A DNA stretch of 64,000 nucleotides from Trichoplax sp. H2 (Eukaryota): contig NOWV01000011.1 in the NCBI GenBank assembly GCA_003344405.1, positions 930,001 to 994,000 of the forward strand, read 5' to 3'. Shown piece by piece: positions 19,668-61,030 of this stretch (its first letter is position 1; each line of letters opens with the position of its first letter). The notes under the pieces were generated by a model that saw only the letters and a program-made list of their open reading frames with translations, searched no databases and was not told where the DNA came from. Position numbers and translations under genes: made by a program.

Positions 19668-20270
19668 TTATCTATGAATAGGATGAGTGAATGCCATTCG
19701 TACTATTTGAGTAATCGGCTGAAATTCGATACCTCTCTTGCAAAATAAACGATAGCCTCTTCTATATTGTATTAAACTTGCCATCAATACTTCAGTTGTC
19801 GTTTCTTCATCAGGTTCGTTTACTTTAAGATATCTCATAGATAATATCGTAGCGATATAAACTATTGGTGTACTAGCAATAGTTGCATTTAACGATATAA
19901 ATGACCATTTGTTCGAATCCAATAAAACTGTAAATATAAACGTAACAAGTAAACATGTAGTAATTATAATATTATATAAAATTTGCCAAAGATTCAACGA
20001 TACTTCAGGAGCATAGTATCGTATATAATCGAATAGTTCTGAAGGTATTCCAATACACTCACAATCATCGATGTTATTTATTTTGTAATAGACTCGACTT
20101 AACTTAACTCGATAGTATTCGATCTTTTCATCACTTAAGTGTTGACTAATGCATGCTAGCAATTCATTTAATCCATCATTGTATCCATGATAGTAATAGA
20201 TATTATAATCGGGCGATAATGTTACTTGGACAGAATCGTCGACAGTATCATCGTGTAGTGATGCTCCCAT
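19668..20270 (-). pseudogene. 3' fragment of the uncharacterised multipass membrane family (copy G)
   Basis: Contains GIPSELFDYIRYYAPEVSLNLW and YRRGYRLFCKRGIEFQP, matching the intact copies. The 5' part is replaced by unrelated sequence. Confidence 0.85.
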
Positions 20271-20323
20271 ATTTGATTATACGGATAGCTATATTTGATA
20301 TAGTCAGGTTGCTTTGGATAGAT

Positions 20324-29593: not shown

Positions 29594-32500
29594 TTAACTG
29601 ACGCTCTGATATTCCAATAAATCAGAATTTCGTCGAGGATTAGGATTAGTAGAGAATATCTGCATCAGTTGTGAAAGAGGCTGAAATTCAATACCTCTTC
29701 TACAAAATAATCGATAGCCTCTTCTGTATAATATTAAATTAGCTAATAATATTTCTTTTGTTATTTCTTCATCAGACTCGGCTACTTTAAGATATTTCAA
29801 AGATAGAACTGTAGCGATATAGACGATTGGCGTATTAGCAATAGTTGAGCTTAACGATGTAAATGACCAACATTTTGAGTCATATAATACTGCCAAAATA
29901 AATGCCAAAAATATGCATGTCGTAACCATGATGTTAAAGAAAATTTGCCACAGACTCAACGATACTTCAGGTGCGTAATATCGTAAATAGCCAAATAATT
30001 CTGATGGAATTCCAATGCATTGACTATCACCGATATTATGGATCTTGTAATAGACTTTACTTAACTTTGCTTGAAAGTATCCTGCTTTCTTACTTTGTAG
30101 ATGTTGACTAATGCATGTTAATAACCCGGTTAAATTGGTGTTATCCGTGAAAAATAGACAGTGATTGTAGTCTTCAGGCAATGTTACATCGACATCAGTA
30201 TCATTGTCATTTATACTGTATTGAAATACAATTCTAGATATTCCATCAGATAATCCATAACCAGTTTGTAACAAAATCTGTTGTAAATATTGTCGTACAT
30301 GTTGTTCTATTCTATCGTCTTGTAACATTTCCGGTAAATCGATTGTTATTATATGATTATCAATACTACCAGAGATGAAGAAATAGACTTCTAACTTTCC
30401 TTGTTTAGCAGTTAAGATATCATCAATTCGTGATTCTACCTTTTGCTGTAAATGGATGATATACCTAGGAAGCATATTTCCCTTCTTTTTATAAGAGTCA
30501 ATCAGTTTCATAATATAATGTACATAAGGTATCACGACGACAATAGTAATGCTAAAATAAACAGAATGGGCGACGATAAAAGTTGTTACATTAATAATGG
30601 TACGGAAAATGACTTGGAAAAAAAGCCAAAATTCGGCTATCGTAAAAACAGAATATGTTAGAGCTACGAGAGATAAGATAGCAGACATAATAGAATTAAG
30701 ATGACGATGTTTAGAATGTGTAAAGAGAAAGTTACGTTTCAATTTAATTGCAAGCACTTCAGAGATAAATAATGTTATTCGTAAAAGTTCGATAGCACCG
30801 AAAATAAAGAAAGGTAAACAAATTATAAATGTCAAGAAGCTTTTGATAAATTTTATCACATGGAAAGATCTCAAATCATTTATTATGTCTTTAATACGAA
30901 TTGTAAGTTGAAAGTGCAACTGGCTATAATTACTTCGCATTAAGATTTTATAATTGAGTGTAGTTAGAGAAGCTCGTTTTAGTTGATACGCTAACGAATT
31001 GGTTAACCAAAATTCTTTTAGGTGAGCCGCAATTATGATTATTGTAAACAATCCATGTAAGATACCAACACCAAAATACCTGAACACTATTGGCTTGGGC
31101 ACTGATAGATGACCGATGAAGGGAAAAACCATGAAAATAGGTGGATAGATCTGTGCTACAACAGACGCATATCCTCCAAAAGCAGCAAGAAAGAACAAAA
31201 CGATATGCATCAGGACATGTTCTATTTGTACCCAACGATTGCTAATTGTACTTTCTCGAAGATAAAAGTATCCGGCTGTCTGCAACTTTAACCGGTTTAT
31301 AATAGAAACGCTTACTGAATCAATTTCCGCTTTTCTATAGTGCAAAGACATAAATTTGCTATTAAGAGCAGAGATTTCGCACTTTAAAATCACACCATCA
31401 GTTACCATCAACTTAATACTTTTACGAATTTTCTGTTATGTGCAGCACTAAAAACTAAGTATTACCTGAAACTGTAAATTATACTTTTAGACTGTATATC
31501 TAGACCGAAATTTGATCTAAATAAATGCAGATATCGCCTTTGGATCTTTAATAGCTAAATGCTAGTTAAAGAACACTTTTCCAAAAATTCTAAATACCAT
31601 CAAAGAACCACTAAAACTAACTTAAATACCATAGCTTTAGCCATAATATACAATTGTTATAGGGTATTCTCGATCAGTTCTTAACTAGCAAATTGCTTGT
31701 AAAGTGAGTATCATTAGTTTATGATCACCGCTTTAACGCTTTAAAATGCAATATTGTAGTTATCTTGAATATCAAATGTTTAGTTAAGCTATAGGTTCCT
31801 TCTTGTGACTTTACGGTATATAACTTCATATGGATTGTGGTAAGGTAATTTTAATAAGGAAATTAGCAAGCAAGTAATTGAGGTGAAAGGAAAAATAGGG
31901 TCCAACTAGTGAAAAAGAAGTCATATAAATAGTATAAGATGCAAATTCACATTGTATAAGAAGATAGAGTGAGACTCTATCATGTAGAAAGTAGGAGTTA
32001 TATTGAAAGAATTATATAATTATAAAAAAAAAAGAACTGTAAAGGAAATATAATATCTATGCTAAATATTCTAAATTGATAGCGAGTAGGATAGAAATAA
32101 AATATAAGGTATTGACTAGAAGTTATTCACAAATGTGTTTACGAAATTGCAGTAGACAAGGAAAGATCTTCAAATTTTTAGTAGTGGAATTGTGTAGAAG
32201 CGAGAAGGTTGTATGCTAGTAACTATTAATTGAATTATCAAAAGAAAATGACAGTCTAAGAACCAATCTTAATATTGAATTTGCTTTAAAAGCTATACAT
32301 GGAGATTACTGTACTCTATTCAAGAATATTGTTTAGTCTGGTACTTTATTACACAGTGATAGACTTAAAAATTAAACGGTAAAGTTCTACAGAGTGATTT
32401 GACTCCATCAGAAATGAAATTGTGTTGCATCTTTTAACAGTTGTAGAAGTTTTAAACAAGAACTTGCTGTCAACTCTATTTGCTACGAGTTCTGTGTGAT

Positions 32501-33315
32501 TATTGTACAGAAAAGAAGCATGTTTATCACATACCCTATAAAAATTATTGATGTTATAGTACTTACTTTTCTAAGGAATCGATATACATATTAACCACCC
32601 TAGTCAAAGCTATTCCTGCCAATGTAGTACTTAGGATGATAGTAAATATTCTCATTAGTGGCGCATACCAAAGTATTTTTTGAGGGGTTAGACATTTATC
32701 AAAATTGATATCATCACTAAGGTCTTCATTTTCGCAGCATGAGTAATCTACGCTACTAATAGAATTTCCTTGGATAGTAAAATTTCTTCTACATAGAGTA
32801 CCATACGGTATCTCCGAAAAATTCTGGTTCTTTTTCAAATTTAAATGAAATACTTTGCTCAGAACTTTAAATATAGTTAATCCTCGACATAAATCAGTGG
32901 TGATGTTACTGTAACAGTCAGTACTAGATTCTGTGATATTAATTCGCAATTCCGATGAGAAGATCGCATAAATACTCAAGCTTGTAGTAATATAATCAGT
33001 AGGTAATGCGAAAATAGCTTCTCCAACATCTTTTCTTAACCATGCATAAAAAATAGGGCTTTCATGGACTGAACTTCGAAGATGGTCATTGCCATTTCTT
33101 TTATAAAGATGAAAAAATACAACTCGAACCGATGGAGATTTAATAATCTTCCTGAAATCATGATATATTCGAGTTTCATTTAGTACGCTCAATTGACAAT
33201 TGGAATGGCACTCAGTCTCCACCCTTTCCAATACTACAAGGTGGAAGGATATAAACAGCCAGAAGATCGATACGCAAGTGAACATGGACAAATTATGCAT
33301 AGACAGAGCCATCAT
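29594..33315 (-). CDS. Uncharacterised multipass membrane protein with Cys-rich ectodomain (copy E, ~829 aa). Exons 33315-32567, 31334-29594
   Basis: Exon 1 ends GAA AA|GTAAGT and exon 2 starts cactatag|A AAA GCG (phase 2, in frame). Signal-like hydrophobic N-terminus and family motifs shared with the paralogues. Confidence 0.88.
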
Positions 33316-33679
33316 TTCAAGGAACACTGTAACCTGAGAAAATACCTAATTGATTATCGGTAATCAAAGTGAGTTACTTCAATATTGATAGAATTTATTC
33401 TTAAACTTTTTTTCACTGCGCTAACTCGACAGTATTTATGCCTTCTGCTTCACCATAAATTTAAATTCATCCAATCCTGCTGGATAAGAATGTTGATCAC
33501 AGGCATTCAAATCTATAGAGTTAATTTATAGCCTTAGTAATGAAATGATTGTGCTCCAAACAAAAAATATAAACAAACATTGAATATAGTAGAGACGGAT
33601 ATCCGGAATGAAAAATTCGCTTGATATATCCTACAGCTTATCTATTCAAATTCTTCATGGTTTTCTATATTTTATTTAT

Positions 33680-36800: not shown

Positions 36801-39770
36801 CTAGAAATTGGCTACATTTATCTTTGCTTGCGCCTGATTAGCTTCAATATCTACGCCTGCACTGCTGGGATATGTTGTAAACATACTCTTTAGTTGTAAA
36901 AACGGATGAAATTCGATTCCTCGGGTACAAAAAAATCGATAACCTCGACGATATCGAACGATATTATTCACTAGGATTTTATCAATCATTTCTTGCTTGA
37001 TTTCAGCTATAGTTAAATATTTCCGGGCAATGGTCGTTGTCACATAGATAATGGGTGCATTAGCAACTGCAGAGCTGATTGAGAATACCGTTGGTGAATC
37101 TGAATCAACTACAACGGTTAATATAAATGTGATAAATAAACCAGTTGTGATAGTAATATTGAAAAATACTCGAGGTAAACTAAGAGATATTTCAGGTGCA
37201 TAGTACCGCAGATAAGAGAACAATTTTGCCGGGATTCCGGTACAGACAAGATCATCAATATCATCCATTTGGTAATAAATTTTAGTTAAATTATTACGAA
37301 ATTCTTGTTCAGTTAAACCTTTCAAGTGAATACCGACGTCTTGAGCCAGTTTTTGTAATTTGTTGCTCTTACGATGGCAAGAGAGATAATTATTATTGCA
37401 CTGGGGCAAAGTTATCAGCATTGTCGTACTTGACGTTTTTTCGTACTGAAATATAACTTTAGATATTCCGTGTGCTAAGACGATTGTGCCATCTCTTATT
37501 AGTTCCTCTAACGTATCCTGAATTTTTTTCTGAATACAATCATCTTTCAACATTTCCGGCACATCAATAATGACATTATCAGTGATAGCATTATCATCCA
37601 ATTTAAAATAGACTTCTAATTTGCCTTCGGTTTGTTCAAGTAGCTCGTCAATTTCTTTCTCAACTCTGTCATGTACTTGGATAATTCGTTGTGGTAGCAT
37701 ATGACCTTTGCTATCATACGCCTCCATAGCCTTAATAACGTAGTGAAAGTAAGGAACGACAATAACTGTTATTACGCTAAAGTAAATGGAATGGGCAATA
37801 ACAAATTCTGCCACGGTAATAACAATGCGAATAATGAGTTGAGTTAATAACCACATTCCCAAAATTGTCAGTGACGAATACAGCAATGAAATAATGAAGA
37901 AAAAAGACGATAATAATCGATATCCGATTGTCTTTGAAGCAGTTGACAGAAAGCTACATCTTAAATGTAATGTTAACGTATCTGTAATAAATAATATAAT
38001 GCGTATAATTTCGATTCTAGCCATAATAGCAAATGGCAATATTATTAGAAATGACAATATCGCCTGCATCATAGCGGTATAACGATGTAACTTTCGGTAC
38101 CGTATTATATCTTTGATGCAATTTTTAAATTGAAAATGTAACTGGCGATGGCTGTTTTCAGTTAAGAACTTGAACGATAAAATCGTAACTTCATCCTGCT
38201 GCTGCGATAGATATGGATAATACTGGCCAAAAAATTGCTGGATGTGCGGGAAGAGAACAAAAAATGTACAAGTGGCATAAATACCAAGGGCGATGTAACT
38301 AGCCAAGGAAGCACGATCGGGTATCTTCCTATTGCGAATGTCAGGATAAATTAAAATAGAATGTGGATAAGCTTGTACTAGAATAGATACAGTAGATCCA
38401 CCGGATGCAATTGCTGATACAGCAATGAACTGACAGCAAAACCAAAGTTGTACCCAAAGACTATTTTTTACCAATTTCCGTAAATAAAAATACCCAATAG
38501 GATGAAATCTTAGTGATGTTAGGATACGAATTTTCTGACCGTCAACTTCAGTTGTTCTGCAGCAAAATAAAATGAAAAAGAGAGTCAATAAGAGCAACTG
38601 GAACTTTATTATAAAAATTTACAATTAGATTACTTTGCTGAACATTATCATGAGAGAACTTGCCGGATTATCAAACTGATTGACAAATACAGCAGTTTAA
38701 ATTAATTAGTTACAGTTGTAAAAACCTTTCGATATTCGTATTATATCTTCAACAGTACTGAGCAAATATACTGTTAGAAGGTTGAAATGACATGGTCATC
38801 AATGGAGTAAGATACGAATAAATTAAAAAGTCAAAGTATACTCATGTATGAAAATGAAATTTACTATAGTTGTAATCTGTCAAGATAGTGACGATAGAGT
38901 AGACTAAGATTTAATTAATTTCGAAAGAGCGATTGAAACTATAGCTTGTATTATGAAATTAAATGATAATTTATTCACCTTCGTATTTACTGTAATTAAA
39001 TCTTTTTTAATTTATATCCATTTATTTTATCTATCAGATTAGACTTACTTTCCTAAAGCGTTCATGACTCTATTGATAATCTTAACCAGTAATGCTCCAC
39101 TAATCGGAATACTGATGATAGCTGTAATTATATTCATAGCTTTGACATACGGTTTGACTGATCTAGGCTCTAAGCATTTCTTAGTATCTACTTCCAATTT
39201 TATAGTATCGCCATCACAACAGGAATAATAGGTAGAACTAGAGTCGTCATCGATTTCCGAATTAAAATCCCTCCTACACACAGTACCGCAATTTTTAGCA
39301 GTGCAATTGTGCATCGTTAGCAATCGAACAAACTTTGCTAAGGTAAAGAAAATAATGTGCCGTTTACATTCCAGAGATGATGCATCGTAGCAGCTTTGGT
39401 TAACTTCTTTGAGATAGATGTTTAAATTGGAGGTAAAAATTGACGTTAAACTCAAAGTGGTGCTCATGTAATCCGTAGGCAAGGCGAAAATTGCTTCGCC
39501 AACATCTTTTCTAATCCATGCATAGAAGATATTCTGTGCCGAATTATAAAGACTATTATTTCCTTTTTGCAGGTGGAAATAAACCACACGGATTGATGAA
39601 ACTCTGACAATTCTACTAAAATTGAGGTAGGACTGTGCCTCGTTTTCAACTTGTAGCTGACATTCCTTCACACATTTCTTGGGGTCTTCGTCGATAGTGG
39701 AAACTTGATTAAAAGTTGAGATAATCCAAAATAGTGTTATCCAATAGAATCTAAAAAGAAAGTATGCCAT
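36801..39770 (-). CDS. Uncharacterised multipass membrane protein (copy C, ~825 aa). Exons 39770-39049, 38556-36801
   Basis: Donor GGA AA|GTAAGT and acceptor ttgctgcag|A ACA ACT (phase 2, in frame). Signal peptide, CxxxCQL, FYAWIRKDVGEAIFALP, CGTVCRRDF, YSCC, PEML, GIPAKLFSYLRYYAP, YRRGYRFFC. Confidence 0.88.
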
Positions 39771-40961
39771 CACTCTATCGGTTTAGACTTGATGCTATCT
39801 TTGTATACCTTGCACCTTCTAAAATTTACTTGTTAGTAAGGTTATATCTTGTAATTTACCGTTCGCTTCCTATTGCTATTTATCCTACTGATCACTAAAT
39901 CAATAATTCCATTACATGAAGAAAATCACTTATTGTTAACTTCATTATTAGCATTAAATCTCGATCTCGACTGAATAATTTTCTATTGATTTAATAATAT
40001 TGTACACAAATAATGGATGATTATTATGTCTATGTGATGTAATAGAAAATTTACCGCCGATATGAAAGTAAATAAGAACTCTTTTCAGTAATTTAACAAT
40101 TAACTAAGATCGATCTATGACTTCTAATTTGCATAAAAGTTTTTCTGTTTTACACTATTGTGGTCAGATCCTGTTAGTACCAATCTTCCCTGATTTGTTA
40201 TGAATAAATCACTACCGGCGGCAATTTTTAATAAAGGCTTTTCTCTCTTACTGGAAGTTTACTCCATCAGTTGATGACTAATTTGAACTCTAATCACATG
40301 GATTATGTGGGTGTTATTCTAAATTTATTTGAAATGGGCAGGAAGCGAAAGGCCTAGTCGGCTGAAGTTTCTTAGTGGCTTAGTCTATACAACAAATTTT
40401 TTACCATTACTTTTATGATAGACATCAATATATTAGTGTCATATACTGTAACAGACTGTATTCATTACAAACATTTTGGAGACTGGAAAAGATTTTATTT
40501 TACTCCTTGAACCTGTACTATTAGCCATGATAGCTTAGTTAGGAATCATTCACCTTAAAAGAGAATTAGATATTAAGATTACACACCTACGTTAGAATCT
40601 GTTCAATTTTCAAAGATCAATTAATCACCTGCTTTCTTTCGATCATCATAGATAGTTATTTATTCAACTATAATTTGAACGGGGTAGATGCGAATATAGT
40701 GGCAGTTATAGTAAATTGGCAATATAATCTTTGTAAAAGTGGAGTTTTTAAAAGTTTACGTAAAAGCAAAAAGTACACCGAAACTGCGCTATTCAATTAT
40801 GGGAAATACACCTTTTATTCTGAATCGTTCATTCTATATCTAATCTGCCTAGCTACAGCAAGGCTACAGTCTAATCTATCATTACAGATCATTAGACAAA
40901 TTAGTTCTAGCCTTACAATCTATTCTAGGCAATTCTAATAACTTCCAAATTAAGAAGAATA

Positions 40962-42884: not shown

Positions 42885-45880
42885 TCAGATATTCTTGCCG
42901 GTAAGTGCAATTTTCACTAGTTTAGACAAAGGTTTATATTCGAGACCTCTTGTACAGAATAACCTATAGCCTCTTCTATAGTGTATCAGATTAGCTAATA
43001 GTATTTCAGATGTTTCTTTCTCGGTTGCTAGAGGAATTTTGAAGTATCTTAGTGTTAGAGTAGTACCAATGAATAGGATAGGTGTGTTAGCAGCAGCAGT
43101 AGTCAATGATGTGAAAGACCAGGAATGAGAATGAAGCAATAGCGTTAAAAGAAATGTCAGAAATAATCCTGTAATAATCAGGAAGTTTACGACAACTGAC
43201 CATAAGTTAAGGGACACTGTAGGAGCGTAATACCGTAAATAATGAAAAAGCTCTAACGGAATCCCAGAATAACGCGCACTATTGATCCTTGTAATGTCAT
43301 AAAATGTTTTCACTAATCTTTCACGATGGGTGTCGATAGAGGTATTTTGTAAGTGTGCACTAATCTCTGTCAATAAATTATCTTTACCTTCACTATTAGC
43401 ACACAGAATAGGATAGTTCTCATTTTCAGGTAGTGTTACCTCAATAATTGTACTGCCATCTCTTCTATAATTTAGGACCATCTGGGACATTCCAACATTG
43501 ATTTCAAATCTATGGTCTTCAACAAGACGTCGTATATAGTTTTGAATTGTAATTTCGATTACAGTTCCCTTTAACATTTCCGGTACATCAACTTCTATAG
43601 CATTATTACTACCAACTAAGAAATCAATTATTAACTTTCCATTTTCTGCATTGAGTATCTTATCAACTTCCTGCTCCACGGCTGAGTCTAACTTCATAAT
43701 AAGTAGTGGTAGTGAGTGTAATTTTTCTGTATAATCATCCAAGTAGGCAATTACGACGTACAAATACGGAATAATCACAACAATAGCGACACTAAAGTAG
43801 ACGGAATAAGTTATAATAAATGTTGTTACAGTAATGATAATACGAAAGAAGGCTTGAAAAATAATCCAAAATTGGAATACTGTTATAACAGAATAGCAGA
43901 AAGCTATCAAAAATAAAACTGGTGCCAGAATGCAATTCAGTACTTTCAATTTGGAGTTGATAGGGAGAAGATGATATTTTAAGCGCAATGTCAATACCTC
44001 CGTTAAAAATATCACAATGGGGATGACAGCGCTTGATTTAGTTAAAAAAAATGGTAGATAGACCAAAACTTGTATTAAATTATTGAAGAATACCACTATC
44101 TTCAATGATAATAAATTTTTCGTCAAATCCGTTATCATATTCTTAAATTGTAAATTTGTTCGCCCAGCGCTCATTGGCGCTAAATATCTATCTTGAGGTA
44201 AAAGTCTGCTTCTATCTTGCCTTTCAGGTTGATGAAGGCAAATTAATTGCTTTAGGTGTGTTATTATAATGATTATGGTAGCAAATAAATGTAATATACC
44301 AGCAGGCACGGTAGCAGCTGTTATAGAAGGCGGTATAGCAACACCGTAAATTTCTGGAACAATCATAAACGCTGATGGATAGATTTGCATCACCAAGGCT
44401 GCATAACCGAATGCAGTTAGCGCGAGCCATAAGATTAAATAGAAGAAGCAGTAATAGGCATGTTTCCAACATGCTCTAGTTGAGCTACCTTGAACGTAGA
44501 AGTATTCGATAGTCTCTAGCCGTAAAGTGTTCAAAATATGGATATGAACAGAATCCATTTTAAAATTTCTAGGAAGGAATAGATCCAACCGAACATAAAA
44601 TAGGAGATAAAAAGCGAATTAGCTGTTATGGTATGCGCCAAAAATACTCTAGAACATGATTGTGAAATAACTACAGCACATATCGAAAATTATTCATTCC
44701 TACTTTTGCACTTAAATATAAAGATATGGCAGAATCAACAATTCTATATGATACTTGCTTAATTTGAGATGTTGTCATGATTTAAAATTCAAAACATTCA
44801 AATCTTTCCGTTGCTAAGTTAATATTTAATAGCTGTGCAGTAAAGTGAAAAAGACAGTACGGCACTTTCCTGTCGCCTCAATATTAACAGAAAGTAATAC
44901 TGGACTAGCTCAATTTCGCTCCTTTCTATATTGCTTGCTTAATCTATAACGACTACGTCATCATTTAATGATAAAAAAATAAATTTGAAATTGCTACTAT
45001 TAAGAATTTTTATTCATTCCAATTAAAAGTATTTCTATTGGTAATTAAAATAGTATCGATAAGGTAATAAGACAGACTTTAATATTTATTAGAGCTGAGG
45101 CTATTAATTATCACGTTACTGTTAGAATCATTTTCCTTTCGTTTACCTCTCCAATGTACCCATGTACATATTGAAAATTTTAACTAACAGAGCGGCACCC
45201 ATTGGGATGGTAAGAAAAATAATGAGGAATTTCAGGAATGGCGCATACCATTTCACTTCTTCAAGAAGTAGACATCGTTGAACATCTACAGGTAATCCTG
45301 GAAAATCTAAATCACAACATGAATATCGAACTTCTTCATGAGCAGTTCTTTCGGTAGCCATGAAACTTCTTCTGCATATATTACCGCAATACCTTCCGGT
45401 ACAGTTGTTGGTTAATCGAGTAAAATTAATTAATGTTTTGAATAAAATAATCGGTTTACTCGGTAGGACCGTCGCGTTTTTAAAGCATCCCTTAGTTGAT
45501 TCTACCAGTTTAATTTTCATACTTGATGTAAAAACTGTGTAAATACTAAGGCCAGTGGTTATATAATAAGATGGCAAAGTAAAAATGGCCTCACCCTGAT
45601 CTTGTTTTACCCACGCATAGAAAACTCCATGCTCTATGAATTGAAGGTGTTGATCCCCAATGTAAATCTTGAAAAATAGGACCTGATTCCACGATAACCT
45701 CGTTGCTTTAACAAAGTTCGCATAGGCTATGGTCTCGTTAACAACGGTAAGTTGGCAACGAGACTCAGATCTTGCAGCAATGGGCTGCAAAAATAGTGCA
45801 AAGCAGATGAGAATAAGCATCTGCCTTACGGCTATCCATTGGATAGGCGATCGGTGATTGCTAGAGCACTCAAATACCAT
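42885..45880 (-). CDS. Uncharacterised multipass membrane protein (copy B, ~785-805 aa depending on start). Exons 45880 (or 45820)-45147, 44568-42885
   Basis: Donor GAG AG|GTAAAC and acceptor ttcctag|A AAT TTT (phase 2, in frame). Signal peptide MLILICFALFLQPIAA and the same family motifs. Confidence 0.88.
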
Positions 45881-47185
45881 AGCTGATAGCAAAGATAACG
45901 AAAACGATTTAGGCAAATAATATAATCAAGAAATTACACCAGCTTAAATACTTCCCATTCAAAAGCTTGAATACTATTTGTGCTGCCATTCATTCGTACA
46001 ATCATATTTTCTATCGACTCTGAACTTATCATTGATGCCTGAATGTGATTTGTTTGACATCCATCAGTACCATCGGTTTCTATTGAATCGTTATTTTGAA
46101 TTCAAACATAGTATAACAAAGCTGAAATATAATATGATAGAATTATTCCTCATGAACTTATAAAGAATTTAATACAGTGATTTAAATTTAGAGATTAGAA
46201 TGGGTGACATTAGGGAGCCAATCTTAAATTCAATATGCAGACAATTATGGTACATTGAATACGAATAAGCATTTGTTTAGTCTTGATTCCCTTTCCGTGC
46301 TATTCATCTCCCATTGCTATCAGTAAAGCAACTAATCAATCTATTACTCAATTGATAATATCTTGAATATTAAGTGTCGTACGGTAAATAAAATGAATGT
46401 TGTCAGATTGATAGTTATAGTCTATCAAAAGATATTATGCGAGTATTATTTAAGTTAAGAGTCCTATTTTTTTATGTTCAACGAGAATTTGATTCATAAA
46501 TTGTTTCCAACAGATTGTAAAACTTTTGTTTAACAATTCTATGGTACGGCTTTGGCCATAATAGTATAAGTTCGTATGAAATAAATGCTGTAATAGATGA
46601 CTGCTGTTTTTTTGCCTTAAACTATCAAACACTTGCTTACCTGAAATCTGAACTAATCTCTAGTTTAACCACTTCAATGAGTCCGTTAATTGCCCGAACT
46701 AATACATAAACATAAATTGACATTGTTTCAATCTTTCCTGAAATCATAATAGATAAAGTGGATATCCATAAATTTTAAAGTACCTTGTGAAACCATGTTA
46801 CAGTTAATAAAGAAAAGTCATTTCTGAATATTATCACTACGTGGTATACTAATCGACCGCTAGGCATATCTTAGGTTAAATTATAAATTATCCAATGAAT
46901 TACAAGCACGTTATGAATTAAAGAAAATTCTTAGCTAATAAGCACTAGAATACAACTCGATTACTTAACGGAAACAAATAAAGAGATATTGAATACAAAT
47001 ATATGAAATTATGATTGCAAATACGACAATTACATTTCTATCTTTCTTAAAACTAAAAGATTGTGCTTCAGTGGTTGGTAGATTGTTATTATCATTAATG
47101 ATAACGACAAGACATCGATTGATTATTCATTAGGTTGTTCAGAATTTGCTCGCTGAGCCTTTTATTGTCTATAAACCTGTATAAG

Positions 47186-48551: not shown

Positions 48552-49307
48552 CTAATTGTTACCGTCTGAGGAATACGAGCTCTGTAAGATCTCTTCTGTA
48601 ACATCCTTATTGCCTTGTTTTGGATCCGTAATTCTTATAATCTTCTTTTTACGTACTGGAGGATTTTTTTCCTTTACAATGTTGTTCATGATAGGGGCTG
48701 ATTGTAAGCGCTGCTGTTGTTGTTGCTGTTGTGGTTGTGAGACCATGTTGGAAGGATTGATAGGATTGGAATTAGCTGCATAAGAAGGCCCAAGCCCATT
48801 CCTGATTGCTTCGGTGTACTGACCATTAACCGGCATCATAGCAATGCGAGTGTTAGCGTTTATAACTGGTCGGTAGATCTGTGGTCTTGGAACCGTTGTC
48901 AAATAACCATAAGCTGAAGGAGAAGTTGCACCAGTTGCATGGTGCATTGGCTGATGAGCAACAGGAGTAGCTACTACTGGTGCACTACCGATAGTAGCTG
49001 GCATATAACGCGGGCGTATCATCACACTAGTCGGAGGAAGAAGGCGATGAGCTTGTGATTTAGCATATACATTATTTCCGCTAGGGTTAGCATATGCTAA
49101 GAATCGATCTCCTTCGTTAACACGCAAGCCATGTTCACGTCGTTGTAGCACTGGAAGGATAACGGCATTATTCATTGGTGGAGGTAATGGTGGCGGCGGT
49201 GGACGTGATTGTGGCCTCATGATCGGCTGCCCAACAATTTGTACCGATTCTTGAGGTAGAGGCGACAACGCGTAACTATATGCGTAATGCGGCTTGCTAG
49301 TAGCCAT
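48552..49307 (-). CDS. Pro/Gln-rich protein resembling the eIF4G N-terminus with its PABP-binding motif; truncated, no MIF4G found
   Basis: RKKKIIRITDPKQGNKDVTEEIL matches the eIF4G PABP-binding segment (human [24 protein letters not shown]). The ORF ends just after it, at a possible donor GAC G|GTAAC. Confidence 0.7.
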   Translation of the reverse strand: MATSKPHYAYSYALSPLPQESVQIVGQPIMRPQSRPPPPPLPPPMNNAVILPVLQRREHGLRVNEGDRFLAYANPSGNNVYAKSQAHRLLPPTSVMIRPRYMPATIGSAPVVATPVAHQPMHHATGATSPSAYGYLTTVPRPQIYRPVINANTRIAMMPVNGQYTEAIRNGLGPSYAANSNPINPSNMVSQPQQQQQQQRLQSAPIMNNIVKEKNPPVRKKKIIRITDPKQGNKDVTEEILQSSYSSDGNN

Positions 49308-49689
49308 ACTTGCTACCTAATGTCTTCATATGCTATAGAAAGTTAAACTTGATTGTCATAAAGTATTAAAGCGCTTCCGCTTCCAACTTTTACAGCAACT
49401 CCAGTAGCGGACTAACGCCAGCACTATCTGAGATAGCTGCCTGCTAAGAAATTACATCAGGAAAACGGTAATGAATATAAAATTTCGAACTTTTATTAAA
49501 AGCCGTACATCATATAAGTATTATTGGATATACCAATATATGCATAAAATTTGTTTTACGCGACATTATACGGTATAGTTATCCTATTGAATTATTTACC
49601 AACTAAAACAGAGGTTTACTGCAAGTCGTTCTATTTAATCATCGACACTTGAAGATTCATTTAGGATGTCAAAAAGAATTGTTGCAAGT

Positions 49690-55273: not shown

Positions 55274-56668
55274 AGGCTGGAAGATGGCCTAGCAGTTGTC
55301 CATTTTGTTCACATGGCGAGTATACTTTACCCTAGTACTATTCGATAGACAGCTCGATCGTGTAAAGCTACAAAGGCAAGCAGGAGTAGAAATGGGTCAA
55401 GACGATCAATCTCCAACCTAATACGGCTGGTCCACAGATCATAGTTGGATTCATTTAAAATCCAATTGAGTTGATGCTCATCTCTGTTTGCTTAAGCCTT
55501 AAGTTTTCACTAGTTTTTTTCCAGTTGGTTCATCTTGTAAGCACATACTGTCCCATTCAATTGTAGGATAGCATAAAGTAGAAAGGCAGACATTAGTAGC
55601 AATGAGTGATAGCAAAATAGTCAATACGTGGACGTCAATAGTGTCTGCATAGACGATACTCCTTTAAATGGGTAAAATGTTCAATTACAAACGTAGAAAA
55701 TAGTCCAAGAATTATCGCTTTAATAGCCCCTCCATTAATGTAGAAGATTGGTAGCATCGACTTGACTATTCGATAGCATGGAATACTAAAAAAGAAGGAT
55801 GATTTGCTAGTTTGGATTTAAACTATGTATGGATTATTGCAGTCTATCAGGGGATGAAGGTGCAATATGGACCAAAGTAAACGATACTCTTTCTCAGACA
55901 GTAAAATGCATGTATTACCTCGATTTTCAGCTACAACCAAGATACAGGCATGGATACCTTGACAGTTGAACAAGAACTACCAATCTACAAGTAGAAAGAA
56001 GCGTTGGGTGCTTGAATGATGAAGAAGTTGGAAAATACCAGCATAAGATTAACAGCCTGGAATCCACTGCAAGTGCTGCCTAATGTCGCCTCATTCAGCC
56101 TTTCCCCTCTATGGTAAAGAGCGATTGCACCCTGGTGTATTAACTGATAGTCAAGTCTAAGTACTACCACCCAGACGACAGTACTAGCGTAGGCTAATCG
56201 CGATATACAAAGTACAATATAGCAACGTATGTCCACATTGGACACTATACAGCAATGGACTTCCTTCGCTGGCATGCTCGCTTTCAATGAATATTGGCTT
56301 TCTGATCGTAGGGTTGCGTCGATTACCTTTCTTCTTTTCCATAGGATTAGTAGAGCATAGGATAATGAATTTGTAGCTTGCAAATCATGCTATACAGTAG
56401 TATAGAGAAGAGCCTCGATAGTTAGACTGGCTTATTATTTTCGCCCTTGGAGTTTTGCTAGTTGCAATCCTTACTGGTGCTACCATCGATCAACTTTAGC
56501 GTATTTTTGAAGATAGTGTTGAAGATCGTTTACAAGTAAAGCAACGTACTTCAACTGAAATTTCTGATCGTCTACTAGCGAGTGATGCTGCTAGGGTAGG
56601 CTACACTGATTCCTCTTCTTTGGACGGCAACATCCACGTCGATCTATGCAAAGGTGGACGTCGATTTA

Positions 56669-57386
56669 TCGCATTGGAAGATCGTCAGCTTGGATGTTTT
56701 AAAAGTAGCAGCATTGGTGCTAAAAACTGAAATTTAGAGTAGCCACCAACTAGTGATTCAACTGTACTTTAGATAGCGATCGATATCGAATCCATATCGA
56801 TGCTTGTAGATCACATTGGAAGATCGTTTGCTTGGATGTACTAAGTGTAGCAGCATTGGTGCTAAAAGCTGAAATTTTACAGCAGCCACCGACTAAGTGA
56901 TTCAACCGCACTTTAGATAGCGATCGATATCTATACTTGTAGATCGCATTGGAAGATCGTTTGCTTGGATGTACTAATTGAAGCAGCATCGGTGCTAAAA
57001 GCTGAAATTTCACAGCAGCGAACTAGTGATTTAATTGTACTTTAGATATCGATTGATATCTAATCCATATCGATACTGGTAGATCGTATTGGAAGATCGT
57101 TTGCTTGCATGTACTAAGTCAAGCAACATTGGTGCTAAAAGCTGAAATTTCACAGTAGCTAACTAGTGATTTAACTGTACTTTAGATACCGATCGATATC
57201 GAATCCATATCTATACTTGTAGATCGCATTGGAAGATCGTTTGCTTGGATGTACTAAGTCAAGCAACATTGGTACTAAAAACTGAAATTTTAGAGCAGCC
57301 ACCGACTAGTGATTCAACTGCACTTTAGATAGCGATCGATATCGAATCCATATCTATAATTGTAGATCGCATTGGAAGATCGTTTG
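56669..57386. repeat. Tandem repeat, ~5 copies of a ~130-145 bp unit just upstream of the Thg1-like gene
   Basis: GCATTGGAAGATCGTTTGCTTGGATGTACTAAG...ATTGGTGCTAAAAGCTGAAATTT...CTAGTGATTCAACTGTACTTTAGATAGCGATCGATATCGAATCCATATC repeated. Confidence 0.93.
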
Positions 57387-57643
57387 ATAGTACAGTAGAT
57401 ACAATTATATTTAATGCAATTCGCGTATATAATCAATCGTTACAATTGAAGCATTCACAATTACGTGTATTGCTGCTGGAAGTGAAATTTCAGACTTTAC
57501 ACCGGCTAGGTAGGGATTTAGCTGGTGTAGGCTGTAGGATAAACGTATCCTGTACTTTGGATAGTAACATCAACATCCATGGCCTTGCTGTATGTACCGT
57601 ACTTTGATTTTGAATCTAGGATTAAAATAGCGACAGAACAACG

Positions 57644-59261
57644 ATGCATCGAATGATAAGTCGAAGTTATCGAAAATGGCCTCTGAAAGAAATCGGAAAT
57701 CGTATGAAAGATTATGAACGACAGATGGAATGGCAAGTACAGGCCAACCAATATTACATCATTCGTTTAGATGGTCATGCTTTTACTAAATATTGCCAAG
57801 GCTTAACTAAACCGTTTGATCATCGCATCTATCTGGCGTTGTTGCATACAGCTGCCGACCTCCTAAACAAATTTGGCTCGAGATCGGCATTCTGCTTCAG
57901 GTATCTCACTCTGTATTATAGCAAAGCTTCCATCTGCAGTTTGCACTCTATTTTGTAATGAATAGCAATTACCTAGCAGAAAAAGCAAGGAGTAGATATC
58001 AAACGCACATTGTGTACTGCCTTGCATAACTAATCCAGATGCACTATCTGTCTTTGATTACATACAAGGCTAGCCTTACATAAGTTGAATTAATAAACGA
58101 TGATGTCACTCATCATAATCATCAAACTACCGTACCATTAACTCGATAGCTTGAACAAATAGTAGTAAAATAACAACAACTTAGACTTACCTATGTACTA
58201 GAACAACAGATGCAATTATTATCCAACACCTACAAATATCATCCACAATGAACAGTTTAAATTGATGACAAATGACTAGCATCGAAATTGTCGACTAGTT
58301 GACAGCTTTGCTTATGCTCTTTAAATCTAAAATATGAATGAATACCACTGTAATTTTTATTTTCATTTTCTATAGTGATGAAATTTCCTTGGTGTTTGCA
58401 CCGACTGAACCATCCCAACGCTCCGATAGAGAAGGAGGCGAAGAAGGAATTATACACTATCAAGGTCGTACGATGAAATTGTGCTCTTTAACTGCTGGTA
58501 TGGCCTCTTCCCGTTTTAACTATTATATGAATATGCAGCAATTCAATGACACGATGGATGCCCTGACATTAGCTAGGATTCAAAGTCACCCAGCAATCTT
58601 TGATTCGCGCCTGTTTTGCTTACCAAATGCTGATGAAGTTGTCAAAAACATTTATTGGAGAGCTCATGATTGCTTAAGAAATTCTAAAATCTGTTAGTCT
58701 ATAAATATATTAATCATATGAATATATTCTTGTTAGTCTATTGAATTATTAAATTATTAGTCGGCTACAATTAGATCAGCAGAATTGATATTCGGTATAT
58801 ATGTATACGAGTACATAATCTTTATTAATAAGAAAAACGACATTTGTAGCTTCGGTAGAAATGTGCTATGGGTAACTTAAATTTGATTATTAATCAAAAC
58901 TAATAGTTTAATTATTGAATATTTTTAAGCATTTGCTCAACATCATGTATCAAGACAGTCATTACACCGTGTCAAAGCATCTGAGGCTATTAAATTAGTC
59001 AAAGACAAGAAAGGCATCAACTACTCGCTTGATACTCCGGATTGGTTTCGGTATGGCACTTTAATCAAGAAAATTTTGGTTGATCATGAAGGTATAAACG
59101 GAAAAACTGGAGAACCTGTCAAAGTAAAACGCTCGAGAATAGCATACGGTAGCATTAACTTTACGTCAAATCTCGCTAGTAATATAGAAGAGATATTACT
59201 AGCTAAGCATGCACCTACCGAGACCAAATTACAATTGCTAAAGCCGACATTAAGTCCGTGA
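57644..59261 (+). CDS. tRNA-His guanylyltransferase family 3'-5' polymerase, Thg1-like protein (TLP) type, ~301 aa. Exons 57644-57900, 58376-58692, 58930-59261
   Basis: Motifs GNRMKDYE, IIRLDGHAFT, KPFD, F|SDEISLVF, GRTMKLCSLTAGMAS, FDSR, WRAHDCLRNS, AQHH.S...LH, PDWFRYGT. Both introns are GT-AG and in frame. Confidence 0.92.
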
Positions 59262-61030
59262 TACTATAGAATATATTGATTAAATAATTGTTGCACCCTG
59301 AAAATCGTACGTCGTTTGCTTTGATCCAGTTGTAGGCTTTATTGCTACATTTTAACCTACAGTACATACGTCGTTTTTTCAATACGATGACATTCGTGTC
59401 ATCAATATTAGCTATTACTTACTGACCTGGCCTACTTCAATCATGGCCCATTGCACAGCTAAATGGTGGAAATTTCAACATAAAATCTCATAAAATCTGT
59501 AAAAAACTGCTGTAAATAATCACAATGACTAATCATTATTTTTGTAAAGACACAATGATTATCCCATGTATAGGTATTTACTGATGCAATTGTATTCGTA
59601 AATCCTCAATTAAATGCATACTTTTAAATAAATCGTTAAGCTTGTAAGGTAAGCGTCACGCCGACCCCTTATGCTGGAATGAACTTGCTCGTGTCATACT
59701 TAAGAGGGATATTCATGCACTACTAGACATAAACAGTTTGTTATTCTACGCAATAAACGTCATATCGTATTTCTATGTTCCCTACCATTCAAATCATTCG
59801 TGCTACTAAAGCGATTTACTACGTGGGTACATTAAATAGCTCACGATGTTAAATGCGATCTGTTTAATCCATCTTTCGCACGAGAAGTAGTAAATAATAA
59901 TGCTTGGCAAATTATGATTCATGAGAACAGTAAAGAAATTGAAAAGGCGATACTTATATGCGGCAGCGGAAATATCTTTTTCAAACTTTGATCAATCATT
60001 TCCGTGTTAAATCATAGTAAGTGCATTAATAATGATAACTACAAGTTACGTAAGAAGTGAAAAGCATTTATGTTAGAAATATACGATATTGTGACAATGA
60101 TCACCAGTACACGGATACTATTTTAACATATACAGTTCTCTAAATATCTGAATTCTATCATCAAAGGTTGCATATGATCAGACTCCTCTTAAAGAACTAT
60201 TTCGCCAGCAATATTGCCGCAGTGTAAACACAACTATCCACCCTACCATTACTGTTTCTATCTCTTCACATCTATCTACCCATTACGTCTATCAACTAGG
60301 GTACAATTATCGAATTCATAACACAATCAATCATTGAGAAATTTAAAGGATAGGTGAACTCAATATAATAGTATTCCATCAACGTATATCATAAATAGAC
60401 TACATTGATATAGATCCTAAGCACACTGTTCTACACAGTATACAGTACAGTAATTCTATGCACAACATTGGAATAAATCTAGTAATCAGGATAGATACGC
60501 TTATACACGTGATCTCATTTCTAGAAGGGGTTTTAATGGCCGAAATTGCAACTTGCAATATGGTTCCATTGAAAAACTCGTATGTTCAATTAAATCGACG
60601 ATTAATCATAGTGTTCTGTATAAAGTATTACAGGTTAGATATAAAATCCCAATCTAACTAAAAATTGACTATTTGCGCATACTTTATGTCATAATTTATT
60701 CTATTGGCGACAACGATACCAACTAAATTAGCAATTCACACGCCATCGATAATTCCAATGTTACCTGCTGTAACACTTCTCTTCACCAGTAGCATCGTTA
60801 GCTTAGATATTTACTAAGAATTGGTAATTCAATCAATCACTTCATGATTTCCAATATCGTGGATCCATGTGATGTAGCTGAAATCTCGAATTGTACTGAA
60901 GTCTAGAGATGAAGGCTGGCTTTTCATTGTCATTCACATACTTGTACACTATATCGATTACTGTTTTATAAAAGACTAGTTACTCTTTCAAAATTCACAT
61001 TTAAATCAAAACCTCTTATTATTACCTTTC

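Follow-up and report, generated by a model that had tools for sequence, protein, structure and literature searches.

The window analyzed here is a stretch of 64,000 nucleotides from the placozoan Trichoplax sp. H2 (assembly GCA_003344405.1, contig NOWV01000011.1, positions 930,001 to 994,000 of the forward strand), and all coordinates below count from its first letter. At 57644-59261 on the plus strand lies a three-exon gene whose spliced product, as read from the window and its open reading frames (ORFs), is a protein of 301 amino acids. The gene is expressed from the placozoan nuclear genome, and its product is probably an intact Thg1-like protein (TLP) of the repair type, a palm-domain 3'-5' RNA polymerase whose function is proposed by homology. 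Published work is cited by PMC number.

A spliced placozoan gene of the Thg1 superfamily

An earlier note on this DNA, made from the letters alone, had described a gene with two introns at these positions, and its coordinates were right (Table 1). When the exons were joined by a script, the product matched the NCBI protein RDD46002.1 (sequence P0001 of the present collection) letter for letter, and exon 2 alone, used as a query, recovered one 301-residue protein at 100% identity, listed as 'Uncharacterized protein TrispH2_001806 [Trichoplax sp. H2]'. Because the joined exons equal P0001, whose cluster also includes the T. adhaerens protein, the window represents placozoan nuclear DNA. RDD46002.1 is encoded on a contig of 1,025,724 bases, and its T. 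adhaerens counterpart, XP_002111372.1 (UniRef B3RUJ1, 'Probable tRNA(His) guanylyltransferase'), on a scaffold of 8,164,392 bases; the two proteins are identical at 300 of 301 residues. Exon 1 holds the basic N-terminal 15 residues and the motifs RMKDYE, LDGH (with Asp43) and KPFD, and exon 2 holds SDE (Asp87, Glu88), an insert at residues 96-112 relative to bacterial TLPs, FDSR, and WRAHDCLRNS (with Arg181, Asp184 and Asn188). A stop codon in frame at 57623-57625 precedes the ATG at 57644.

Part of the gene stretch is present in 20 of the 23 public sequencing runs listed, and contigs from four runs of four different studies (X5, X7, X8 and X13) were aligned to the locus. Single contigs of X5, X7 and X8 (1579, 1745 and 1536 nt) start at 57325, end between 59572 and 59775 and leave out precisely the two introns, the joint between exons 1 and 2 (57898/57900 to 58374/58376) being present in three runs; such intron-less contigs in three studies are the pattern expected from spliced mRNA. 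X13, the sole run recorded as RNA, yielded one contig that joins across intron 2 and another that keeps intron 1, and the latter, along with the uncovered parts, was taken only as a sign of unspliced RNA or of DNA. The X13 sequence, which bears the coded label 'organism B', differs at five positions and by one 2-base deletion, and its sole difference within the coding sequence (CDS), at 57718, converts GAA to GAG and is synonymous. An intact TLP gene is transcribed and spliced in this placozoan.

The region ahead of the gene contains a 140-base tandem repeat at 56668-57386 (5.2 copies, 85% matches), which slightly overlaps the start of the transcript contigs at 57325. That start may be an assembly break at the repeat rather than the true 5' end. 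Short contigs stack deeper on the repeat, and one joint there 'goes back 280'; the number of copies may vary, or copies may occur elsewhere. A short upstream ORF in another frame, at 57543-57656 on the plus strand, has its first Met codon at about 57579, ends in ...MALLYVPYFDFESRIKIATEQRCIE followed by a stop, and runs across the start codon of the TLP, whose translation it might reduce.

Membership of the protein in the Thg1 superfamily is evident from several directions. The whole protein matches the Pfam family Thg1 (PF04446) at E 1.2e-30, with 106.6 bits against a cut-off of 29.2 and coverage of profile positions 2-130 of 130; together with the scores of exons 1 and 2 taken separately (Table 1), this places the family match far beyond chance. 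A search of the ESM Atlas returned only Thg1-family clusters, with uninformative taxa, and an NCBIfam search with the protein returned no family. Among solved structures, the sequence matched the TLPs of Bacillus thuringiensis (4kgk, 3.3e-15) and Methanosarcina acetivorans (5axk, 2.9e-9) and then the Candida Thg1 (3wbz, 9.5e-5), with human Thg1 not listed at E ≤ 1. An AlphaFold2 model, built from a 60-sequence alignment of family members, reached a predicted local distance difference test (pLDDT) score of 91.9 and a predicted template modeling (pTM) score of 0.90; it is weakly defined only at residues 1-13 and about 100-110, and the exon 3 domain is mostly above a pLDDT of 90. In Foldseek the model matched the bacterial TLP first (4kgm/4kgk, 2.5e-15), then the archaeal one (5axk, 3.8e-14), with Thg1 structures (about 1e-13) trailing by no more than one to two orders of magnitude. 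There were 32 PDB matches at E ≤ 0.001, all of them Thg1 or TLP chains among the matches listed, and the next match was at 1.8e-2. The part of the model encoded by exon 3 superposes on TLP and Thg1 structures across 268-276 alignment columns. The predicted fold confirms the superfamily and, taken alone, does not separate TLP from Thg1.

Sequence motifs help to make that separation. All 19 of the invariant columns in the 60-sequence TLP alignment are kept in the Trichoplax protein, including the metal carboxylates Asp43, Asp87 and Glu88 and also Arg181, Asp184 and Asn188. The motifs named in the earlier note are in place, at residues 20-25 (RMKDYE), 56-59 (KPFD), 86-88 (SDE) and 180-189 (WRAHDCLRNS), and its statement that the catalytic residues are intact (Asp43 and Gly44 of LDGH, and SDE) holds. 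A further pattern that it had offered as a TLP signature, AQ.H.S...LH, does occur in the protein, but is only loosely shared with TLPs, whose consensus there is A...FS.K.L. For comparison, canonical Thg1 ORFs were fetched from metagenome contigs by a degenerate motif pattern, and at the matching columns they display S-K-F/Y-E-Y, KPND and WRQxDCHINNLYN, the contrast that had been anticipated. Where the canonical enzyme has KPND, with K, P and N invariant in eight canonical ORFs, the Trichoplax loop reads KPFD (Lys56, Pro57, Asp59); LRNSKIS occupies the columns of HINNLYN; the canonical S-K-F/Y-E-Y (SKFEYV) start is absent; and identity to the canonical ORFs is 21% in the alignment. According to a 2025 preprint, KPND and HINNLYN are specific to Thg1 and absent from bona fide repair TLPs, and residues within HINNLYN are indispensable for adding G-1 opposite A73, a non-Watson-Crick reaction (PMC12632743). 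The same source describes R147, D150 and N154 of one helix as nearly invariant across the family, the exception being Dictyostelium TLP2 (DdiTLP2), which has Arg187 in place of the universal Asp150 and KLERHD in place of the KPxD loop (PMC12632743). The equivalents of the three helix residues in Trichoplax are Arg181, Asp184 and Asn188, and the KPxD loop is also kept, unlike in DdiTLP2. Judged by these motifs, the Trichoplax protein reads as a repair-type TLP, neither a canonical Thg1 nor a DdiTLP2-like enzyme.

A scan of viral contigs for the canonical Thg1 motif found one locus, L081 (9709-11163), whose frame fuses unrelated sequence to a canonical Thg1 C-terminal stretch (WRQADCHINNLYNTTFW...). 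This locus could be an assembly chimera or a piece captured from a eukaryote; only its C-terminal stretch is Thg1-like, and it was left out of the analysis.

The name attached to the T. adhaerens protein in UniRef implies a different activity, that of a tRNA(His) guanylyltransferase which adds G-1 to cytosolic tRNAHis. Besides the name, membership in the Thg1 superfamily agrees with this activity, and the search for a separate canonical THG1 leaves room for it: a profile of eight canonical sequences matched 5527 of 8000 scored candidates, and the best 120 of these, in which the named sequences are mostly from flowering plants, included none recognizable as Trichoplax. In a tblastn search of the 64-kb window, six canonical ORFs matched the TLP exons weakly and otherwise gave a single match at chance level. 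Nonetheless, the protein does without KPND and HINNLYN, the Thg1-specific motifs needed for addition opposite A73 (PMC12632743), its identity to canonical Thg1 is low, and the branch between the two groups is fully supported: in a quick IQ-TREE analysis of 104 rows, eight canonical rows split from 96 TLP rows with a score of 100 in the Shimodaira-Hasegawa-like approximate likelihood ratio test (SH-aLRT). A guanylyltransferase of this kind is therefore very improbable. The earlier note had called the protein TLP-type rather than canonical and had proposed a phylogeny as the check; motifs, matches in structure databases and this branch all agree with it, and the protein does not fall within canonical Thg1.

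Relatives and origin

At E ≤ 0.001, HMMER retrieved 4207 proteins from 1.84 billion representative sequences; the top one had an E-value of 2.7e-49 and about 39% identity. Among 20 matches that were looked up, ten carried an organism name and nine of these were eukaryotes. The amoebozoans Planoprotostelium (two paralogues), Clydonella, Protostelium, Arcella and Stygamoeba are among the named relatives, along with Euglena gracilis, the haptophyte Chrysochromulina parva and Corallochytrium (whose name was read from the gene prefix Clim_evm); the tenth is a member of cluster P0126 labelled 'MAG: ... [archaeon]', that is, a metagenome-assembled genome, on a 3.8-kb contig. A word-based search added three nectriaceous fungi and one marine protist transcriptome. 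In blastp the named eukaryotic TLPs scored 135-188 bits, the 80 prokaryote rows at most 106 and canonical Thg1 at most 55.5; TLP rows spanned 100-188 bits, and the first prokaryote row ranked 177 of 306. One 116-residue ORF (P0073) is 63% identical over residues 86-191, and its ends coincide with the borders of exon 2, consistent with a diverged genomic homologue that shares the exon structure.

Trees were built from 212 rows of collected relatives (fragments below 200 residues excluded), 80 named prokaryotic TLP loci and 18 canonical ORFs, 310 rows in all. FastTree placed the Trichoplax protein in a clade of 173 rows with a support of 87, and the 18 canonical Thg1 rows were monophyletic. None of the 80 labelled prokaryote rows fell in that clade, and in this respect the term 'bacterial-type' used in the earlier note was imprecise, the nearest relatives being eukaryotic TLPs. 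The quick IQ-TREE analysis contained a 57-row clade without labelled prokaryotes (support 98), and a careful IQ-TREE analysis of 66 rows separated 56 rows from ten prokaryote rows with an ultrafast bootstrap of 100 and an SH-aLRT of 98. On these trees and scores, the Trichoplax protein appears to belong to a eukaryote-wide TLP clade.

The tree placement also bears on whether the gene derives from bacterial contamination of the assembly or from a recent bacterial transfer. The top solved-structure relative is bacterial and TLPs are widespread in prokaryotes, with at least 581 loci confirmed by a prokaryote genome scan with a smaller alignment. Against these origins, however, both spliceosomal introns are removed in transcripts, and the gene resides on megabase contigs in two species beside ORFs for an ACAD9/VLCAD-type acyl-CoA dehydrogenase and an ALAS-like aminotransferase. 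Its composition is also that of the host: the CDS has a GC content of 39.8%, and 35.8% at third codon positions, as compared to 39.9% and 31.5% in the ACAD9-like neighbor, and the two introns together have 29.6% as opposed to the 39.8% of the CDS. When prokaryote genomes were scanned with patterns from P0001 peptides, none of the 38 matches was confirmed and no close relative emerged. Of 401 genomes from a single bacterial phylum, three had a match, the highest-scoring of which reached 98 bits at 32% identity, and all 80 prokaryote rows lie outside the Trichoplax clade at the low scores given above. With introns removed and a host-like composition, on megabase contigs and in this position in the trees, contamination and recent bacterial transfer are excluded for practical purposes, and the gene is the host's own, as the earlier note had held.

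The clade also includes TLPs from relatives of animals, namely the nectriaceous ascomycetes Dactylonectria, Thelonectria and Fusarium lateritium and the unicellular holozoan Corallochytrium (among proteins P0163, P0166, P0171, P0167 and P0007). Fungi are described as carrying, as a rule, canonical Thg1 only. The patchy distribution of TLPs among opisthokonts deserves a survey of its own.

How the gene came to reside in Trichoplax is a separate matter. In the careful IQ-TREE analysis the Trichoplax protein groups with P0087 and P0024 at 73/94 and then lies near amoebozoans with low support. It could accordingly have been acquired by transfer from an amoebozoan-like protist, from one eukaryote to another, rather than kept from an opisthokont ancestor: FastTree and careful IQ-TREE both place it with P0024 and P0087, near amoebozoan TLPs, and not with Corallochytrium or the fungi. 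Furthermore, the family is represented in most metazoa by one member only, a Thg1 (PMC5041481), so that vertical descent would require many losses. Such a transfer is nevertheless doubtful, since the supports are weak (that of the trio, and lower ones beyond it), and P0024, the direct sister in FastTree (support 95), is not the direct sister in the quick IQ-TREE, where the position of Trichoplax collapses. Forcing Trichoplax and Corallochytrium, both Holozoa, to group together cost 10.2 log-likelihood units and was not rejected by the approximately unbiased test (p 0.29); compared with the quick tree, the constrained tree was the better one (p 0.83). TLPs of the same clade are present in a holozoan and in fungi, and the two introns and host-like composition speak against a recent event. 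Both vertical descent within Holozoa and a protist donor are compatible with the data, and in either case the donor or ancestor appears from these relationships to be eukaryotic. A eukaryote-wide clade and an ameliorated, host-like composition together argue that the TLP is an old resident of the placozoan genome.

Other features of the window

Elsewhere in the window are three tandem pairs of paralogous single-exon ORFs on the minus strand, each with a large and then a small member (Table 1). A Pfam scan of two members of these pairs found no family, and they look like a lineage-specific expanded gene pair. A low-complexity regulatory protein is the probable source of the Pro/Gln/Met-rich open frame, which would be one of its exons.

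Table 1. Positions of the TLP gene parts and of other features in the window
Feature	Position	Strand	Remarks
5' untranslated part	57325..57643	+	contigs of X5, X7 and X8 all start at 57325
Exon 1	57644..57900	+	codons 1-85 plus 2 bases; Pfam Thg1 4e-14
Intron 1	57901..58375	+	475 bases, GT..AG, phase 2; skipped in single contigs of X5, X7 and X8
Exon 2	58376..58692	+	Pfam Thg1 7.5e-10
Intron 2	58693..58929	+	237 bases, GT..AG, phase 1; skipped in contigs of X5, X7, X8 and X13
Exon 3	58930..59261	+	C-terminal (fingers-like) domain; TGA stop 59259-59261
3' untranslated part	59262..59775	+	contig ends: X7 59775, X5 59615, X8 59572
Large paired ORF	29594-31435	-	large members about 580-610 aa, many hydrophobic stretches
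Large paired ORF	36801-38618	-	as above
Large paired ORF	42885-44618	-	as above
Small paired ORF	32563-33345	-	small members about 245-260 aa, Cys-rich, C-terminal hydrophobic stretch
Small paired ORF	39045-39782	-	as above
Small paired ORF	45143-45925	-	as above
Further ORF	19668-20276	-	202 aa, resembles C-terminal part of a large member
Pro/Gln/Met-rich open frame	48552-49316	-	254 aa, poly-Gln run, no Pfam family

Proposed function and comparison with known systems

The biochemistry of TLPs (PMC6471195, PMC5041481, PMC4284800) suggests a two-step templated mechanism for the Trichoplax enzyme. The protein would activate a 5'-monophosphate RNA end with ATP (adenylylation) and would then extend that end in the 3'-5' direction, each new nucleotide forming a Watson-Crick pair with the opposite strand of the helix, which serves as template. 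The typical template would be the 3' half of a tRNA acceptor stem, and the outcome would be the restoration of 5'-truncated tRNAs or of other small structured RNAs. Dictyostelium offers three eukaryotic precedents: TLP3 is mitochondrial and repairs mitochondrial tRNAs in 5' editing, TLP2 is mitochondrial and adds G-1 onto mitochondrial tRNAHis, and TLP4 works in the cytosol on substrates other than tRNA (PMC5041481). For the Trichoplax protein we lean towards a general role in RNA 5'-end repair or quality control, like that of DdiTLP4 or the bacterial TLPs. The earlier note had also raised the addition of G-1 by a TLP, and the retained Asp184 and KPxD loop speak against addition of the DdiTLP2 kind.

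A more specific role would lie in the mitochondrion, where the protein would repair the 5' ends of tRNAs encoded in mitochondrial DNA (mtDNA), as in Dictyostelium and Acanthamoeba, or add G-1 to mitochondrial tRNAHis. The N-terminus, MHRMISRSYRKWPLK, has three Arg, two Lys and no Asp or Glu in 15 positions, the first acidic residue being Glu16; it is Arg-containing and free of acidic residues, just as previously described. It is basic and hydroxylated, residues 1-13 are unstructured in the model, and 19 residues precede RMKxYE, versus a prokaryote median of nine. Clear presequence-like leaders are found in other members of the clade (Clydonella, P0021 and Chrysochromulina), and the nearest named relatives include amoebozoans. 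Substrates exist, with 24 tRNAs in placozoan mtDNA (PMC1781491), DdiTLP3 and DdiTLP2 are themselves mitochondrial (PMC5041481), and 5' editing is documented in other Amoebozoa, namely Physarum, Dictyostelium and Polysphondylium (PMC4284800). On the other hand, the leader is very short (about 13-19 residues), with the conserved first helix beginning at residue 14. The N-termini of the Euglena and fungal members are acidic and that of Corallochytrium resembles a nuclear localization signal, arguing that localization is not a trait of the clade. The published record, so far as its accessible portions go, also points elsewhere: placozoan mitochondria are reported with U-to-C editing of cox1 mRNA only and no tRNA editing (PMC5633667), neither PMC5633667 nor PMC1781491 mentions mismatches in the first three acceptor-stem pairs, the mark of the 5'-editing systems of Amoebozoa and chytrids, and PMC4284800 discusses metazoan mitochondria under 3'-end rather than 5'-end tRNA editing. 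The special features of DdiTLP2, Arg for Asp150 and the KLERHD loop, are absent. On balance, import into mitochondria is a tentative possibility and a dedicated mitochondrial role of the kinds just described rather unlikely; an obligatory pathway of mitochondrial tRNA 5' editing is less likely than general repair, and unlikely at best.

A bolder proposal combines two options, that the TLP is the sole Thg1-family enzyme of placozoans, THG1L having been lost, or that it is a mitochondrial tRNA 5'-repair or editing polymerase inherited from the unicellular forebears of animals, either of which would be a reliance known from no other animal; taken as it stands, this proposal is speculative and improbable. 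If the TLP were the sole enzyme, the identity of tRNAHis would be set by templated addition, by an encoded G-1, or by a histidyl-tRNA synthetase independent of G-1. C. elegans is described as the only well-sequenced metazoan without an identifiable Thg1 (PMC4338351).

Several points weigh against the assignment of an intact, expressed, repair-type TLP of eukaryotic kinship. The TLP family is defined by biochemistry, and the assignment here comes from sequence and a model. The C-terminal domain, despite its Thg1C-like fold, gave no match to Pfam Thg1C (PF14413) at E ≤ 0.01, in a comparison where the canonical ORF L088 matched both Thg1C (2.1e-41) and Thg1, and the 17-residue insert (about 96-112) is partly of low confidence in the model. 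The 80 prokaryote loci in the trees are the best matches to a prokaryote-type query, P0192, and not to P0001; only about 17 rows of the Trichoplax clade carry an organism name, most being metagenome proteins; and the 'archaeon' label of P0126 means that the clade is not proven purely eukaryotic. The RNA status of X5, X7 and X8, the source of the double-spliced contigs, is presumed. Finally, if Trichoplax is without a canonical THG1, the TLP might have to serve tRNAHis.

A repair-type TLP in Trichoplax would matter for several reasons. In the field of 3'-5' polymerases, animals are treated as having a single family member, canonical Thg1, and metazoa are discussed only as having Thg1 present or absent in the accessible portion of PMC4338351; TLPs have so far been described from bacteria, archaea and protists. 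A literature search, extending to neither supplements nor the 2012 family review, found no published report of the Trichoplax gene or of any animal TLP. The gene model itself is already public under a generic or misleading name, and what is new is a TLP in an unexpected lineage: an intact, expressed TLP of the apparent repair type in an early-branching animal adds a lineage to the family and corrects the database name 'Probable tRNA(His) guanylyltransferase'. Together with the relatives in a unicellular holozoan and a few fungi, it suggests an opisthokont ancestor that already had TLPs, followed by repeated losses. What TLPs act on physiologically in organisms without editing is described as an open question (PMC4284800, PMC6471195), and the gene makes Trichoplax a simple animal for studying their role where mitochondrial 5' editing is not known.

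The Trichoplax TLP can be compared with four kinds of better-known enzymes. With canonical Thg1, including human THG1L (3otb, 7cv1) and the Candida enzyme (3wbz), it shares the superfamily, the fold (Foldseek about 1e-13) and the metal-binding carboxylates. It differs in the absence of KPND, HINNLYN, the SKFEYV start and the Thg1C signature, along with the 21% identity, and, judging from its sequence, it should not be able to add G-1 opposite A73. DdiTLP2 resembles it as a TLP with a proposed organellar role, and templated addition of G-1 opposite C73 is chemically possible for any TLP; unlike DdiTLP2, however, the Trichoplax protein does not have the hallmark Arg187 and KLERHD (PMC12632743).

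The repair enzymes of Dictyostelium and Acanthamoeba (DdiTLP3, DdiTLP4, AcaTLP1 and AcaTLP2) share with the Trichoplax protein an Asp at the D150 position and the DC(K/L)R turn, which is DCKR in their case and DCLR in Trichoplax (PMC12632743), and the host differs in being an animal. The loop motifs given for Dictyostelium TLP2 and TLP4 in that preprint occurred in none of the collected sequences, and no Dictyostelium or Acanthamoeba row could be recognized among them. The TLPs of B. thuringiensis (4kgk/4kgm) and M. acetivorans (5axk) are the best matches by both sequence and Foldseek, with only about 23-26% identity in the structural alignment. The Trichoplax protein differs from them in its longer basic N-terminus, the insert at about 96-112, a longer C-terminus and two introns in its gene, and in its position in a separate, eukaryote-populated clade. 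What it shares with them is a KPxD loop without Asn, SDEIS and WR..D..RNS, and the chemistry of templated 5'-end repair is presumably the same.

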